From positions 1,088,001 to 1,152,000 of the forward strand of contig OY843592.1 of the NCBI GenBank assembly GCA_963692865.2: DNA of 64,000 bases. The letters run 5' to 3'. A program made the translations under genes and the position numbers. Below the pieces are notes generated by a model. The model was not told the DNA's origin. It saw nothing but the letters and a program-made list of their open reading frames with translations, and ran no database searches. Below are positions 24,768 to 30,425 of this stretch, in pieces. Within the stretch, counting starts at the first letter, position 1. Every line of letters starts with the position of its first letter. This DNA comes from a bacterium (GTDB lineage: Bacteria; UBA8248).

Positions 24768-25613
24768 GTGAACGCCCATTTCCGGCATCTGCGCTACGTG
24801 ATGGGGGAGAATCCGGTCACGTTTTTCGCGTTCGCCCTTTTCTTCTTGCTCATGGCGCTGGGTTTGTTCGGTCCCTGGCTCGCGCCCTACGATCCCCTCG
24901 CCAGCGACACCGCCAACGCTCTCAAGCCACCTACATGGGCGCATCCGTTCGGCACCGACAATCTGGGACGAGACGTTTTCAGCCGTGTTATCACGGCCAC
25001 GCGGCTCGACCTGGCGATATCCGTGGCGGCGGTTTCGCTCTCCTTCGTCGCGGGAAGCGTCGCCGGTGTTTGCGCGGGCTACTTCGGGGGTGCTACGGAC
25101 AAACTCATCAGCCGGCTCACCGACACCATCATGGCGTTTCCCCTCTTCGTTCTGGCCATGGGCATCGTATCGGCCCTGGGCAATACGATCGAGAACATCG
25201 TCTACACCACGGCCGTCATCAATTTCCCCTTCTACGCGCGTGTGGCGCGGGCCGAGGCGAATGCGCGCCGCGAGGCGGGTTTCGTGGAGGCGGCGCGCCT
25301 TTCGGGGAATGGACACGGACGGATTCTCCTTTTCCATCTGGGACCCAACATCATGCCGCCGATGATGGTTCAGATATCGCTGAACATGGGTTACGCCATA
25401 CTGAACGCGGCGGGACTCTCCTTCATCGGCCTGGGCGTCCGGCCCCCGACTCCCGAATGGGGGATCATGGTGGCCGAGGGCGCGAAGTTCATCGTTTCGG
25501 GCGAGTGGTGGCTGGCCATCTTCCCCGGCGCCGCCCTGATGCTCGCCGTGCTTTGCTTCAACCTTCTGGGCGACGGCCTCCGCGATCTGATCGACCCGAG
25601 AATGAGGACGTGA
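24768..25613 (+). CDS. Dpp/Opp-type ABC permease (DppC-like)
   Basis: HPFGTDNLGRD, FVEAARLSG, PEWG and NLLGDGLRD motifs; start inferred next to the upstream stop. Confidence 0.9.
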   Translation: MNAHFRHLRYVMGENPVTFFAFALFFLLMALGLFGPWLAPYDPLASDTANALKPPTWAHPFGTDNLGRDVFSRVITATRLDLAISVAAVSLSFVAGSVAGVCAGYFGGATDKLISRLTDTIMAFPLFVLAMGIVSALGNTIENIVYTTAVINFPFYARVARAEANARREAGFVEAARLSGNGHGRILLFHLGPNIMPPMMVQISLNMGYAILNAAGLSFIGLGVRPPTPEWGIMVAEGAKFIVSGEWWLAIFPGAALMLAVLCFNLLGDGLRDLIDPRMRT

Positions 25614-26584
25614 TGGAATCCCGGAACCCGCTTCTCCTCATTGAGGATCTCTCGCTCGAGTTCCGCACCCGCACCGGCGTCGTCAAGGCGCTCGAGAACG
25701 TGAGCTTCGAGATTGAGAAGGGGCAGACGGTCGGCGTCGTCGGCGAGAGCGGCTCGGGAAAGTCCGTCATGTCCTACGCCGTCATGGGAATCTCCGATCC
25801 GGCGGCGAGAATCACCTCGGGGCGGATTGTCTTCGGAGGCATCTCCCTGCTGGAGAAGTCCGGGCAAGAGCTGCAGGAAATGCGCGGGCGTGAGCTCTCC
25901 ATGATATTCCAAAGCCCGAGAACGGCGCTCAACCCCATCCGGACCATCGGCAGCCAACTCGAGGACGTCATCTACCGGCACAGCAGCTTCCGCGGCCGGC
26001 AGATTCGCCAGCGCGCGCTCGAACTGCTCCACCAGGTTCACATCCCCGACCCGGAGAAGCGCTATCGCGCCTATCCATACGAACTCTCGGGCGGAATGTG
26101 CCAGCGCGTGATGATTGCGATCGCCATCTCTTCCGACCCCTGGCTCCTGATAGCGGACGAACCCGTAACGGGTCTGGATGTAACGACCCAGGCGGCGATC
26201 ATGGACCTCGTCAGGGACGCGGCGCGTGAGAGAAACATGGGAACGATTCTCATCACCCATGACCTCGGCCTCGCCGCGGAATACTGTGACAAAATAATCG
26301 TCATGCACTCGGGGCACGTTGTCGAAGTGGCGGATACCGAACGCTTGTTCATGCGTCCGCGGCATCCCTACACGGCGAAACTCATCGGAGCCACTCCGAA
26401 TGCCGGTAGAGACCTCGCGGAACTCACCTCGATTCCCGGCAATCTGCCGGATCTGCGTACAGAGTTACCGGCTTGCCGCTATAGCGAGCGGTGCGAGCGC
26501 CTCAAAGAGGATTGCCTTGAGTCCCCGCTTCCACGCTTGGAGGCGGGAACCGGCCATCTTGTCGCCTGCCGGTATCCGCTCTGA
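25613..26584 (+). CDS. Dpp/Opp-type ABC ATPase (DppD-like)
   Basis: GESGSGKS, LSGGMCQR and IADEP motifs; C-terminal Cys cluster. Confidence 0.92.
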   Translation: MESRNPLLLIEDLSLEFRTRTGVVKALENVSFEIEKGQTVGVVGESGSGKSVMSYAVMGISDPAARITSGRIVFGGISLLEKSGQELQEMRGRELSMIFQSPRTALNPIRTIGSQLEDVIYRHSSFRGRQIRQRALELLHQVHIPDPEKRYRAYPYELSGGMCQRVMIAIAISSDPWLLIADEPVTGLDVTTQAAIMDLVRDAARERNMGTILITHDLGLAAEYCDKIIVMHSGHVVEVADTERLFMRPRHPYTAKLIGATPNAGRDLAELTSIPGNLPDLRTELPACRYSERCERLKEDCLESPLPRLEAGTGHLVACRYPL

Positions 26585-27636
26585 TGGCCTTGCTCCAAAT
26601 CATAGACCTTACGAAGAAGTTCCCGATCCGCAAGAGTGGAGCGATGGAAAAGGTTTGGAATTCTCTTAAGGGCATGCAGGAGGAAGGACGAAGCGAGGCA
26701 GGCCATCTCCACGCCGTGGACGGCGTGAGCTTTTCGCTCGAAGCGGGGGAAAGCGTCGGCCTCGTCGGCGAGTCGGGGTGCGGGAAGTCCACGCTGGCCC
26801 GTTTGATCGCCCGTCTGCAGGACCCCACATCGGGCGTTATCGCCTTTGAGGGCAGAAACATCGGAGAGGTTCGGGCAAGCCGTTTCATCCAGGGTGAGAA
26901 GCGCCGGAAAATCCAGATGGTGTTCCAGGACCCCACGGAGAGCCTGAATCCCGGATTCACGGCTTTTCGAGCGGTCGCCGACCCGCTTCTGCGCCTGGGC
27001 GGGATGAGAAGCGGCCCCGAACTGGCGAAGCGCGTGGCGGAACTCTTCGATCTGGTGGGTCTCGCGCCGGAATTCCTGGCCCGTTATCCGCATCAACTCT
27101 CGGGAGGTCAGAAGGCGAGGGTCGGGATCGCGCGCGCAATAGCGCTTGAACCCTCACTCCTGATTCTCGACGAGCCGACCTCCGCCCTGGACGTTTCGGT
27201 TCAGGCGGTCATCCTGCATGTTCTCGAAGATCTCAAGAACCGTCTCGGGATGAGTTACCTGTTCGTCTCCCACGATCTGAACGTCATCCGGCTGCTGTGC
27301 CAAAAGGTTCTGGTGATGTATCTCGGCAGGATCGTGGAGGCCGGGCCCACCCGGGAAATTCTGCGCCACCCGCGCCATCCCTACACACGGGCGCTGCTAT
27401 CCGCCATACCCGCCATCGACACGACCGAGCGCACCGAACGGGTGCGATTGACCGGCGATCCGATGAGTCCCATCGATCCTTCTCCACATGTTTGCCGCTT
27501 TTACAGCCGCTGTCCTCATAGAGAGGATAGGTGTCAGGAAGAAATGCCCATGTTGGAGTCCTATCCCGGCGGAATCGAGGTCGCCTGCTTCCACGCTTCA
27601 TCAGTCGGCAATTATTCCCTCACCGGGCGAGATTGA
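26584..27636 (+). CDS. Dpp/Opp-type ABC ATPase (DppF-like)
   Basis: GESGCGKS, LSGGQ, LDEPTSALD and HPYT motifs. Confidence 0.92.
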   Translation: MALLQIIDLTKKFPIRKSGAMEKVWNSLKGMQEEGRSEAGHLHAVDGVSFSLEAGESVGLVGESGCGKSTLARLIARLQDPTSGVIAFEGRNIGEVRASRFIQGEKRRKIQMVFQDPTESLNPGFTAFRAVADPLLRLGGMRSGPELAKRVAELFDLVGLAPEFLARYPHQLSGGQKARVGIARAIALEPSLLILDEPTSALDVSVQAVILHVLEDLKNRLGMSYLFVSHDLNVIRLLCQKVLVMYLGRIVEAGPTREILRHPRHPYTRALLSAIPAIDTTERTERVRLTGDPMSPIDPSPHVCRFYSRCPHREDRCQEEMPMLESYPGGIEVACFHASSVGNYSLTGRD

Positions 27637-27953
27637 CTCCATCACCCCGCTCTGAAGAATCCTCCCGGTTCAGGCGCCGAACCCTCTTCTTTCTCTCGTC
27701 GATTTCTCACTTTTTCATGAGAAAATTCGCATCATGAGTAAGGCGCATTTGCGAACAGGGTGAAATTTTTGGATTCGTTTCAGTGTACGTATCTGTGGCG
27801 ACGACCTCGCGGTTATGCTCCCAGGCGGCTTCGAGGAGGAGTTCCGGGCTGCGAGACGCGGGCGAAGCGGGGAGGTTCTTCGGATGAAACGAAGGGGGGA
27901 TCGCCTGCTCGCCCGGAAATGATAAAAAACCCGTTTAATGCAAATAATGATTC

Positions 27954-28002
27954 CTGAAAATATGTATAAAATTGGATAAATTCACGGGGTTTTTCGATAA
28001 AT
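27954..28002 (+). repeat. 49-bp AT-rich element, inverted near-duplicate of 31832-31880
   Basis: CTGAAAATATGTATAAAATTGGATAAATTCACGGGGTTTTTCGATAAAT matches the reverse complement of 31832-31880 at 47 of 49 positions. Confidence 0.9.
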
Positions 28003-28351
28003 AACTGAAAATTAAATTCTTTGGAAAGGACGCCGCCGGGTCGCGGCGCAGGGGAATTCTGCCATGGCCCGCGCCTCCCGCGATGACGGCAAATGCGCGG
28101 AATTGCGGGGAATTGCCGAGGCTTTTGCGTTGCTGCCATTATTTCCGGCTCCGGGGGGCTCATCCGGGCGCCTGATTGACATTTTGTCAGACCCGGGCCG
28201 CCCGTTCCCGAAAAATAGTCAATGCGCGAAGCCTCGCGAAGGAGACCGAAAGGCGTTTTCCGGGGATTTTCGCGCCGGGGATGCCTCATATCTAATTGAA
28301 TTAATTATTGTTATTCGTATGGATCATTTTCCGGCGGAGAAATGGGGGATT

Positions 28352-28367
28352 TGGCACGATTCGTGCT
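28352..28367 (+). promoter_or_regulatory. Sigma54 (-24/-12) promoter
   Basis: TGGCACGATTCGTGCT gives GG-N10-GC with a full TGGCACG box; AT-rich tract about 28290-28320 upstream. Confidence 0.7.
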
Positions 28368-28377
28368 TATATCAAGG

Positions 28378-28550
28378 GCGTGTGCTTTTGCCCCCGATGG
28401 GCGACTCGAACAGAGGAGCCTTTTCTCCCCGGTGGTCAGTTGAAGGGTCCCCCGATGCTGATTCACTGACATCTCGCCGAACGATTCGCCTTGATTGGCG
28501 GATTCCTTCCATGATGGGGCATGTCCTTCGGGGCGTGCCCCAAGTCTTTA
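28378..28550 (+). ncRNA. Candidate sigma54-dependent small RNA (about 170 nt; ends approximate)
   Basis: Lies between the sigma54 motif and a + strand hairpin; no credible + strand gene follows before the convergent HAD gene. Confidence 0.45.
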
Positions 28551-28553
28551 TTT
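28516..28553 (+). terminator. Terminator-like hairpin with cUUCGg loop
   Basis: GGGGCATGTCC-TTCG-GGGCGTGCCCC then AAGTCTTTATTT; two G-U pairs form only on the + strand. Confidence 0.65.
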
Positions 28554-29132
28554 TACAAGGAGTTGATCGAGCAGGGCGGGCGCTTCCCGGAGGGTGCGAA
28601 GCGTCAGATCGCTGGGAATCGAGGAGCATTCCGCCAGGTGGACGGAGAGCATTCCGGCGGCTTCGGCGGCCAACATGTCGTACTTGCCGTCCCCGATGAC
28701 GACGCATCTTCCGGGCGGTACGCCGATGGCCTCGGCGCCCGCGAACATCGGCCTCGGGTCCGGCTTCCAGCAGCCGATGTCCCGGGTGATCAGGACTTCG
28801 AGCGAGACGTCGATTTTTTCCGCCATTTTCAGAACGTGCCGCTCGGCGTTGTTCGTCACGACGCCGAAGGGGATTTTGCCGGCTCTGAGGTATGCGAGAA
28901 GCGCGTGCGCGCCGTCGTTGGCTTCGGCGGTGTCGGCGGCTTTAAGCTCATGTTTTTCAAGGACGTCCGATACCTCGCGCGCGCGCTCGGGAGGGAGCGT
29001 AACGAGGAGGTCCAGAATGGATACGTCCGCATCGCCCAAGCCCATCTCCTCTTTCATCGCGGGCCAGTCGAAGGCGGGTTTCGTGAGCGTGCCGTCAAAA
29101 TCGAGCAGCACGCCCTCCACGGTTCGCCTCAT
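28548..29132 (-). CDS. HAD-superfamily hydrolase (phosphatase-like)
   Basis: LLDFDGTL (motif I), VTNN, KPDP and IGDGKYD motifs. Confidence 0.88.
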   Translation of the reverse strand: MRRTVEGVLLDFDGTLTKPAFDWPAMKEEMGLGDADVSILDLLVTLPPERAREVSDVLEKHELKAADTAEANDGAHALLAYLRAGKIPFGVVTNNAERHVLKMAEKIDVSLEVLITRDIGCWKPDPRPMFAGAEAIGVPPGRCVVIGDGKYDMLAAEAAGMLSVHLAECSSIPSDLTLRTLREAPALLDQLLVK

Positions 29133-29142
29133 CCCGGCTTCC

Positions 29143-30156
29143 TCACAACACCCTTGAAACTTCATCGGAATCAAAGCGCCTGAGCGGAGAGGTTTCGCCG
29201 CCGCGCCGCATCATCACTCCCAATTCAGGCGCGCATAACTTGCCGATGCGAACGCCCATTGCACCCGTTGCAATGAGCGCTTCCCGAACGGTTTCCTCTC
29301 CTTCGGCTGGAACCGCCACCAAAAGCGCGCCCGACGTGATGACGCCCAGAGGGTCCAGACCCAAGGCTTCGCAAATCCTCCCTCCTTCCAGGGAGATGGG
29401 AATGCTGGCTTCTTCCACGATTGCCCCCAAACCCGCCGCTTCGGCCATTTCATGGACGCCCGTGGCGAGGCCGCCCTCGGTCGGGTCGTGCATGGCGCGC
29501 ACGCAGCCCGTTGCGGCCGCCGCCAGGGCTTGCGCCACCACGCTGATGCCGGGAGATTCGAGATACTTTTTCGCATTCTCGAGTATCTCGACATCCATGA
29601 CGTTTTTGAGAGAATCGTATTTCGCATCCGCAAGAATAGCCGTTCCCTCGACGGGTATGGGGCGCGTAAGCAAAATAAAATCATTCACTTGCGCGCCCGC
29701 GCCGCGTATCAGATTCTCCTTCGACACTTCTCCCAGCATGTGGCCCGAGAGGATCGGAAAATCCAGGCCCGCCGTAATCTCCGTATGTCCGCCGCACAAG
29801 GTGACGCCCAAATCGGCGCAGGCATCTTCCACCTCTTTCCAGATACGGCTTGCCATCGCCTCATCGGCGCGTCCTTCCGGCAGAAGCAGGGTCATCAGGA
29901 ACCACAGCGGGGCAGCGCCCATACAGGCGACGTCGTTCGCGTTCACGTGTACGGCGTAGCGTCCGATATGATGCTCCACGAACGTGACGGGGTCCGATTT
30001 CGCGACGAGGTAACGATCTCCCATGTCGATGACGGCCGCGTCTTCCCCCACCTGCGGACCCACGACGAGGCGCGGGTGAGAAGCCGCGTTCTTGAGCAGA
30101 GCGCCCAGCACGTCCGGCGGAAGCTTGCCCACGGGAAATGGAGACCTGTTGACCAT
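29143..30156 (-). CDS. AIR synthase (PurM/HypE/ThiL/SelD superfamily) related protein
   Basis: GKLP, GEDAAV, KSDP, VNANDVACMGA, GGHTE, HDPTEGGL and SGALL motifs; start at MVNRS inferred. Confidence 0.85.
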   Translation of the reverse strand: MVNRSPFPVGKLPPDVLGALLKNAASHPRLVVGPQVGEDAAVIDMGDRYLVAKSDPVTFVEHHIGRYAVHVNANDVACMGAAPLWFLMTLLLPEGRADEAMASRIWKEVEDACADLGVTLCGGHTEITAGLDFPILSGHMLGEVSKENLIRGAGAQVNDFILLTRPIPVEGTAILADAKYDSLKNVMDVEILENAKKYLESPGISVVAQALAAAATGCVRAMHDPTEGGLATGVHEMAEAAGLGAIVEEASIPISLEGGRICEALGLDPLGVITSGALLVAVPAEGEETVREALIATGAMGVRIGKLCAPELGVMMRRGGETSPLRRFDSDEVSRVL

Positions 30157-30223
30157 ACTCTTACCCTGGGGAGGAGGCTCCATCACGTCAAGCCGGATAC
30201 CCGGAGCGCAAGGCGTTTTCATG

Positions 30224-30252
30224 TTGACGCCCGGGTTGGGGCGTTCTAGAAT
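30224..30252 (+). promoter_or_regulatory. Sigma70-type promoter, probably for tRNA-Phe
   Basis: TTGACG-17 bp-TAGAAT about 100 bp upstream of the tRNA. Confidence 0.65.
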
Positions 30253-30349
30253 CCCGTCTTCCCGGTAAAGGCATGGAAACGCTCGCCTTTCCGGGAACAT
30301 GAGCCGATACGGAACAACCCCTGGTTGCCTGTCGATTGCTCCACATACT

Positions 30350-30425
<76 letters not shown>

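Follow-up and report, generated by a model that had tools for sequence, protein, structure and literature searches.

An intergenic stretch in the genome of a bacterium that we take to be an uncultured member of the Nitrospinota very likely carries a gene for a small RNA (sRNA) that has not been described before, and this gene very probably depends on sigma-54 and an activator for its transcription. The locus lies in the window analyzed here, a 64-kb stretch (C1:1088001–1152000) of a 4.15-Mb assembly (G000; 61% G+C, 97% complete, 6.7% contamination estimate); coordinates without a contig prefix refer to this window. A first-pass annotation of the same DNA had posited that a sigma-54 promoter and an intrinsic terminator delimit an unannotated sRNA gene of about 170 nt on the + strand. 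This proposal is supported by conservation, by an upstream palindrome, and by strand-specific covariation, and is further backed by the lack of a conserved open reading frame (ORF), the presence of rpoN and two activators in the genome, and the lack of an Rfam match. Comparison among relatives demonstrates the predicted gene, its strand, its fold, and an associated module of promoter and putative activator site; from the same material we infer its transcription, the identity of its activator, and its mode of action. A search of sequencing runs for the stretch returned five runs of unrecorded type, from two studies, and no RNA run. Taken as a whole, the explanation offered here, an activator-controlled sigma-54 sRNA acting in trans through a CCUUCC segment, appears somewhat better than evenly supported.

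The weight of the case lies in conservation rather than in promoter and terminator matches, each of which is at chance level. The near-consensus −24/−12 element reported at first pass is present as TGGCACGATTCGTGCT, with one mismatch to TGGCACN5TTGCW, and is the sole match to this pattern (up to one mismatch) in the window; shuffles gave a mean of 1.61 matches and at least one match in 80 of 100 cases, which places the motif by itself at chance level. A terminator scan retrieved the hairpin TGGGGCATGTCC-TTCG-GGGCGTGCCCCA at 28515–28542, followed by AGTCTTTATT, and terminator-like sites in the region were likewise no more frequent than chance (3 found, 2.4 expected). These two scans are what would favor a fortuitous pairing of promoter-like and terminator-like motifs in a spacer without any gene. 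That reading is contradicted by family-wide conservation, by covariation, and by a palindrome at a fixed distance, and we regard it as exceedingly improbable. The features discussed below are collected in Table 1.

Table 1. Features of the sRNA locus and of related loci in the genome and its relatives (window coordinates unless a contig is given)
Feature	Position	Strand	Remarks
Oligopeptide-type ABC ATPase genes, two	24935–26584 and 26584–27636	+	Upstream flank of the sRNA unit
Palindrome TGACATTTTGTCA, candidate upstream activator site	28177–28189	.	About 175 nt upstream of the −24 TGG
Second conserved upstream block TTCCCGAAAAATAGTCAA	28205–28222	.	Conserved in the upstream alignment of 21 genus loci
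AT-rich conserved block TATC-N4-TTGA...GTTA	28289–28314	.	Conserved columns, 21 genus loci
Sigma-54 −24/−12 promoter TGGCACGATTCGTGCT	28352–28367	+	GG at 28353–28354, GC at 28365–28366
Predicted sRNA, about 177 nt	28378–28554	+	Start from promoter geometry, end in U-tract
Core stem-loop CGGUGG.UCAG ... CUGA..UCACUG	28430–28468	+	Best-conserved part of the RNA
Hairpin GAUUCGCC-loop-GGCGGAUU	28483–28504	+	Helix 6; compensatory changes in 7 of 8 pairs
CCUUCC, candidate seed (anti-Shine-Dalgarno-like)	28505–28510	+	Unpaired, between last hairpin and terminator
Intrinsic terminator	28516–28554	+	11-bp stem, UUCG loop, then UCUUUAUUUU
HAD-family hydrolase gene	28548–29174	−	Convergent to the sRNA; identified by Pfam
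Second sigma-54 sRNA unit TGGCACGGGAATTGCT ... CCTCCTCCCGGAGACGGGAGGAGGTTTTTT	G000:C1:1555333–1555578 (L042:1501–1746)	+	Duplicate at C8:23158
Extra copies of the second sRNA	G012:C42:16118–16256; G002:C1:1197241–1197379; G016:C4:25886–26029; G011:C1:222677–222815; G013:C1:285144–285282
Activator 1	G000:C1:1514298–1515677		Receiver-AAA+-HTH_8, NtrC-type response regulator directly behind the kinase gene
Activator 2			GAF-AAA+-HTH_8 protein
Contig duplications in G000	C8:23158 = C1:1555333; C4:19220 = C1:1197004; C3:16069 = C1:3344039

A BLASTN search of 28300–28560 against 40 relatives recovered the unit, from the −24 element through the terminator, at 75–88% identity in 21 of the 22 genus genomes, and gave no match beyond the genus. 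Of the 22 listed alignments to relatives, 14 start at query base 50–51, which corresponds to 28349–28350, just before the TGG of the promoter. To look further afield, a covariance model (R1) was built from the alignment of 22 genus sequences and run with the stricter filters of Infernal on 51 genomes of the class. R1 retrieved one full-length copy per genome in 34 of 41 genomes of the family, spanning eight of its nine genera, and none in nine genomes from three other families of the class. The RNA is thus very likely specific to one family of uncultured Nitrospinota, as far as these genomes represent the class. A pattern scan of the species genome collection for one conserved 20-mer returned 18 stretches, 15 of which are the same RNA element; the remaining three (L027, L029, and L035) share only this 20-mer with it and were rejected as chance matches. 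A single genus member, G010, lacks the sRNA while retaining the kinase, the activator, and the second sRNA described below. At its locus (C4, L139:2125–2362) about 235 nt separate a nuoN-like gene from the HAD gene, with neither promoter nor RNA; since the contig is intact and the element is cleanly missing between these two genes, the absence represents a real loss.

A sigma-54 promoter is recognized by GG at −24 and GC at −12, ten bases apart. The GG and GC dinucleotides are invariant and their spacing constant in all 22 aligned genus loci, and the bases between the promoter and a conserved G-run (28376–28378) vary freely. All 13 loci from other genera likewise carry a −24/−12 element with GG and GC, located 65–200 nt upstream of the conserved RNA core; this distance implies that the RNA there carries a variable 5′ extension (40–175 nt), and the core, last hairpin, and terminator remain constant. 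No sigma-70-like site was found by promoter scan near the predicted start of the sRNA. The rpoN gene, whose presence had been named as a check, was located at C1:2564492–2564965.

Evidence for an RNA gene also comes from a fold that is maintained on one strand by compensatory substitution. RNAalifold on the 22 genus sequences predicts a closing helix, three internal hairpins, a last hairpin, and the terminator. The + strand folds at −73.5 kcal/mol (z −2.49; 4 of 200 shuffles as good), compared with −57.4 kcal/mol for the − strand (z −0.46; 56 of 200 shuffles as good). Covariation had been suggested as a check at first pass and bears the proposal out: in a MAFFT alignment of the 22 sequences 98.7% of cells are paired and 7 of 46 pairs have changed on both sides. 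None of 500 shuffles reached the observed values for four of five covariation measures, the fifth (the count of further pair types) being unremarkable, and sliding the partners by 1–3 columns lowered pairing to 40–54%. When the 13 sequences from other genera were added, 95.7% of cells were paired and 28 of 46 pairs showed compensatory changes, with slid controls at 41–52%; this 35-sequence alignment was fitted to the covariance model and hence leans towards it.

Individual elements of the fold behave differently. At the terminator, compensatory changes affect 8 of the 12 pairs of its helix (helix 7) in the 35 sequences, 99% of cells are paired, and UCUUU is conserved. The core helix (helix 4) is far stricter: 4 of its 10 pairs never vary, among them one G-U pair, and one other pair changes from A-U to G-C in 14 sequences. 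G-U pairs, which would be C-A on the opposite strand, are frequent throughout, and one occurs in every one of the 35 sequences; they fix the + strand as the transcribed one. The 11-bp cUUCGg hairpin was correctly described at first pass as having G-U pairs that work on the + strand only, two U-G pairs being possible on that strand alone.

The locus thus displays strand-specific compensatory pairs without a conserved ORF, the combination by which a structured noncoding RNA gene would be recognized. The roughly 150 nt downstream of the promoter had been described as having no credible gene, and indeed no conserved reading frame was found there. A small protein in place of a noncoding RNA might be suspected because the frame in G000 is open over the entire stretch (28064–28699) and a GTG frame of 57–60 codons is open in 10 of the 22 genus sequences; in the other 12, however, the latter closes after 18–39 codons or is absent. 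No start codon is conserved: the long frame is absent from some sequences and begins at varying codons in others, and three genomes (G019, G001, and G007) have ACG in place of the ATG at 28397. Differences of 1 and 2 nt in loop length put the frame out of register, and a G-to-A change that converts a G-U pair to A-U in six sequences places a TGA in the longest frame (e.g., in G017 and G022). As substitutions track base-pairing rather than codon positions and the stretch has no Pfam match, a coding function is highly improbable. The RNA does not belong to a described family either: a cmscan of 26500–30000 against the 4227 families of Rfam 15 at E-values up to 10 gave no match on the RNA, the best matches in this interval having E-values of 2–5.5 and 15.6–20.4 bits against gathering thresholds of 31–60.

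Upstream of the promoter, a second layer of conservation points to a site for an activator. The sequence TGACATTTTGTCA is a perfect palindrome whose offset is unchanged in all 21 genus loci that extend far enough upstream (G021 was excluded because its contig is too short). The 13 loci from other genera all have a similar palindrome, which precedes the promoter by 159–175 nt, and in 11 of them by 172–175 nt, a near-fixed spacing that is kept although the distance from promoter to core varies widely among the same loci. In all 34 loci, then, the palindrome falls within the approximately 100–200 nt expected of activator sites. Under the loose criteria used for other genera, single matches are cheap, with 3106 promoter-like and 380 palindrome-like sites genome-wide; a constant spacing across genera is not. 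Searched for together across the genome at low stringency, promoter and palindrome gave many chance pairs, and a near-consensus promoter with a near-perfect palindrome was found at two sRNA loci only. Allowing up to one mismatch and requiring an A/T spacer leaves just three distinct palindrome sites in the whole genome (4.15 Mb); sigma-54 sRNA units lie downstream of two of them. A second upstream block, TTCCCGAAAAATAGTCAA, is possibly a weaker activator site. The AT-rich tract mentioned at first pass is present at 28289–28319; its conserved part appears to resemble the IHF consensus and is presumably a bending site for an IHF-like protein, of which family (HU/IHF) the genome encodes five members.

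A further AT-rich conserved element of about 200–250 nt, with repeated GATAAATTCACGGGGTT-like units, was observed upstream of the palindrome at 27920–28130 in G000 and most of the genus. G004, G001, G007, G009, and G015 lack it, and there a nuoN-like gene (Proton_antipo_M) abuts the palindrome, the same arrangement as in other genera. Gene content farther upstream varies among genomes, a pattern suggestive of a hot spot for insertions or of a mobile element's end.

Scanning the genome for sigma-54 promoters yielded three good intergenic candidates: the sRNA studied here, one at C1:1555333 (+), and one at C1:608955 (−). Downstream of the promoter at C1:1555333, a strong terminator follows after about 230 nt in which no credible gene was seen. 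Ahead of the promoter lie TGACGTTTTGTCG and TGACAAAATGGCA, and two palindromes of the same type as that of the first sRNA occur 79 and 110 nt upstream. All 22 genus genomes and 34 of 41 in the family carry this second putative RNA. Its length is about 152 nt in relatives; in G000 a 5′ insertion of about 70 nt brings it to about 220 nt. Promoter and palindromes were found in 24 of the 25 loci examined (the duplicate G000 contig included), the exception being an extra copy in G012. The second locus also has no Rfam match at permissive E-values. It is predicted to fold into four hairpins, one with a C-rich loop, when the G000 row is trimmed to the shared part. As R1 finds one match per genome and none on the second RNA, the two RNAs are not detectably related.

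Two observations were made in passing on copy number. In five genomes of the genus the conserved part of the second sRNA recurs 5.5–7 kb from the first copy; the extra copy examined, in G012 (L070), has no sigma-54 promoter or palindrome detectable by regular expression. In G000, the small contigs C8, C4, and C3 duplicate stretches of C1 exactly or nearly, which is assembly redundancy consistent with the 6.7% contamination estimate.

The third promoter, TGGCATGAATTTTGCT (L043), is followed by an ORF for a small membrane protein and by a universal-stress-protein-like ORF, the latter named from its sequence. It lies about 7 kb from the gene for a GAF-type activator and is a probable target of that activator.

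Only two proteins with a full sigma-54 interaction domain are encoded in the genome, both also containing AAA+ and HTH_8 domains: this GAF-type protein and an NtrC-type response regulator. Neither was assigned to a named equivalog in NCBIfam. The response regulator gene directly follows that of a 759-residue kinase with two membrane segments and a periplasmic domain of about 280 residues, then PAS, HisKA, and HATPase domains; the periplasmic domain gave weak Pfam dCache matches below threshold (E-values 0.0018 and 0.088). The sRNA gene is located about 400 kb, and the second RNA gene about 40 kb, from this operon. A choice between the two activators is suggested by genus g22 (four genomes of about 2.1 Mb, 90–97% complete), in which neither the sRNA nor the second RNA was detected (0 of 4 each). 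A full-length kinase orthologue, present in 37 of 41 genomes of the family, is found in none of the four, and the response regulator has no orthologue there, only its AAA+ part matching at the locus of the other activator. By contrast, g22 keeps rpoN (4 of 4) and a full-length orthologue of the GAF-type activator at 62–65% identity (in two pieces in G053). The joint absence of kinase, response regulator, and both RNAs argues for the kinase/response-regulator pair as the controller of both RNAs. Because these losses amount to a single evolutionary event in one lineage, we consider it likely, and no more firmly than that, that the response regulator is the activator of the sRNA.

The conserved elements suggest the following sequence of events. 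Sigma-54 RNA polymerase would transcribe the sRNA from its promoter only while an enhancer-binding protein at TGACATTTTGTCA is active, the IHF-like block between palindrome and promoter probably bending the intervening DNA. The NtrC-type response regulator, together with its membrane sensor kinase, would be the most likely activator, and the same two-component system would drive the second, unrelated orphan sRNA through the same palindrome. The sRNA would end at its own intrinsic terminator and act in trans. Its own terminator, together with a convergent next gene at each of the 22 genus loci, implies that it is not a leader of a downstream gene.

The convergent neighbor, correctly anticipated at first pass, is the HAD-family hydrolase gene, and beyond it on the same side lies an AIR-synthase-related (AIRS) gene. 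Their persistence next to the sRNA raises the question of whether the locus acts in cis on a HAD-AIRS operon, with sigma-54 transcription or the RNA itself interfering with the 3′ end of the converging transcript. In addition to the convergence seen throughout the genus, a HAD match by Pfam is found in 6 of 13 loci from other genera and a HAD and/or AIRS-family gene in 8 of 13. The HAD stop codon is placed within the U-tract of the sRNA terminator, and the sRNA would be fully complementary to the HAD transcript if read-through occurred; the − strand has no T-run after the hairpin, so that the HAD transcript may continue into the sRNA region. On the other hand, the strong, covarying terminator would stop the sRNA ahead of the HAD coding region, the HAD gene is kept in G010 despite loss of the RNA, and old synteny alone can account for the linkage. 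Action in cis would also leave unexplained both the conserved internal fold and a second sRNA with the same palindrome at an unrelated locus, and we judge it improbable. Farther along on this side, a tRNA-Phe (GAA) at 30350–30425 (+) overlaps the first codons of the 403-codon AIR-synthase-related ORF (29143–30354, −), whose true start must therefore be further in.

For an sRNA acting in trans, the likeliest mode would be Hfq-independent pairing of CCUUCC, and perhaps of neighboring C-rich stretches, with the G-rich ribosome-binding regions of mRNAs. Terminator U-tract aside, CCUUCC is the sole unpaired run of at least four columns with at least 75% identity across the 35 family sequences. It complements GGAAGG and, through G-U pairs, also GGRRGG, that is, purine-rich ribosome-binding sites. 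The first-pass suggestion that two CU-rich stretches could pair with Shine-Dalgarno sequences thus survives for one of them: AUUCCUUCC (28502–28510) contains this conserved unpaired segment, while CCUUUUCUCCCC (28419–28430) forms the loop and 3′ arm of a genus-specific hairpin, and only CYCCCC before the core helix recurs in other genera.

Targets were sought in a home-made set of 3317 genes covering 79% of a single genome and imperfect near overlapping starts. Full-length duplex energies were dominated by long gapped duplexes, with control windows outscoring translation-start regions. For the CCUUCC segment, 35% of translation-start regions fell below −16 kcal/mol compared with 24% of internal control windows, and for the CUCCCC segment the proportions were 54% and 47%, respectively, so that start regions were enriched only slightly. 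The start regions of the kinase, activator, HAD, and AIRS genes showed no notable complementarity to the sRNA. The best candidate, an acyl-CoA-dehydrogenase-like gene (C1:1195730–1197004, with GGAAGGAAGGAG before its ATG), was rejected, as no co-variation was seen in 29 orthologous loci and its start region is the same in G010, which has lost the RNA. Overall, anti-ribosome-binding-site pairing is about evenly poised between right and wrong.

In the principal competing view the sRNA is real and sigma-54-dependent but serves mainly to bind a protein or ligand by way of the invariant core stem-loop, whether as decoy, scaffold, or sponge. The fact that part of the core helix is strictly invariant leaves room for such a role, and fits protein recognition at least as well as pure base-pairing: the four fixed pairs, G-U included, hold across 35 sequences from eight genera in which the other long helices covary freely. 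Core, last hairpin, and terminator stay constant beneath a 5′ extension of changing length, and target prediction gave no enrichment of note. An Hfq-dependent base-pairing sRNA was rejected, the genome having no Hfq-family match, and Hfq is therefore not at hand to assist pairing of a short seed. Against a binding role, no partner protein is indicated. A CsrB/RsmZ-type sponge for CsrA was rejected in view of the absence of a CsrA match in this 97%-complete genome and of loops without repeated GGA; apart from the convergent HAD/AIRS pair, no gene is consistently adjacent; and CCUUCC is conserved though unpaired. We hold this alternative to be unlikely as things stand, and assign a similarly low likelihood to its broader form, in which the output of the kinase/response-regulator pair would consist wholly of structured RNAs (the present one and the second, including the additional copies of the latter in some genomes) and the RNA studied here would be a core-stem-loop platform for a protein, in a lineage for which neither an Hfq nor a CsrA match was obtained.

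Both modes have precedents among known sRNAs. The Qrr sRNAs of Vibrio, driven by LuxO and sigma-54, are about 100 nt long, mutually similar, and Hfq-dependent. The predicted circuit resembles theirs in combining an NtrC-type response regulator and sigma-54 with several orphan sRNA genes that have their own terminators, sRNAs being the visible output of the regulator. It differs in that the two RNAs are unrelated in sequence to one another, longer, and without an Rfam match in sequence or structure, and in that no Hfq was found; the TGACATTTTGTCA palindrome, too, presumably differs from the LuxO site. GlmY is controlled by GlrK/GlrR (QseE/QseF) and CrcZ by CbrA/CbrB, and both RNAs sequester proteins, the mode envisaged in the protein-binding alternative. 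Predicted features that the present system has in common with them are two-component control, use of sigma-54, an activator site upstream with a bend of the IHF type, and a structured orphan sRNA. In contrast to GlmY and CrcZ, the RNA has no Rfam match, no A-rich repeats of the CrcZ type, and no GlmY/GlmZ fold, and comes from a different phylum. RsaE/RoxS of Firmicutes are structured sRNAs whose unpaired C-rich motifs pair with Shine-Dalgarno regions without a need for Hfq, as proposed here for CCUUCC; the C-rich hairpin loop of the second sRNA is a comparable feature. Unlike RsaE/RoxS, which are not sigma-54-dependent, the RNA would require sigma-54, and it has no Rfam match to this family. 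A further parallel, by description rather than by sequence, comes from Desulfovibrio vulgaris, in which the account given in the source describes a sigma-54-dependent response regulator, DVU0679, with the sRNA Dv_sRNA2, of unknown function, as a mapped target and a binding-site motif conserved in relatives (PMC3333781). According to the same account, Dv_sRNA2 lies directly downstream of its regulator gene (PMC3333781), whereas both RNA genes here are distant from the operon.

A literature search returned no publication on regulatory RNAs or sRNAs of Nitrospinota, and one on sigma-54-dependent sRNAs led to a single enterobacterial study. Control of sRNAs by two-component systems through sigma-54 is already well known; what this locus adds, for an uncultured phylum, is a new RNA family with a putative compact regulon. 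With the covariance model, metagenomes and metatranscriptomes can be annotated for the RNA. Activator site, promoter, and RNA can be reconstructed in a laboratory host. Should the core stem-loop prove to be a platform for a protein, it would represent a new RNA–protein regulatory pair rather than another antisense sRNA. The whole putative circuit, comprising a sensor kinase, a sigma-54 activator, a DNA site, and two RNA genes, is readable from the genome, and with only two sigma-54 activators encoded there, it would offer a defined, testable entry to signal transduction in an uncultured lineage.
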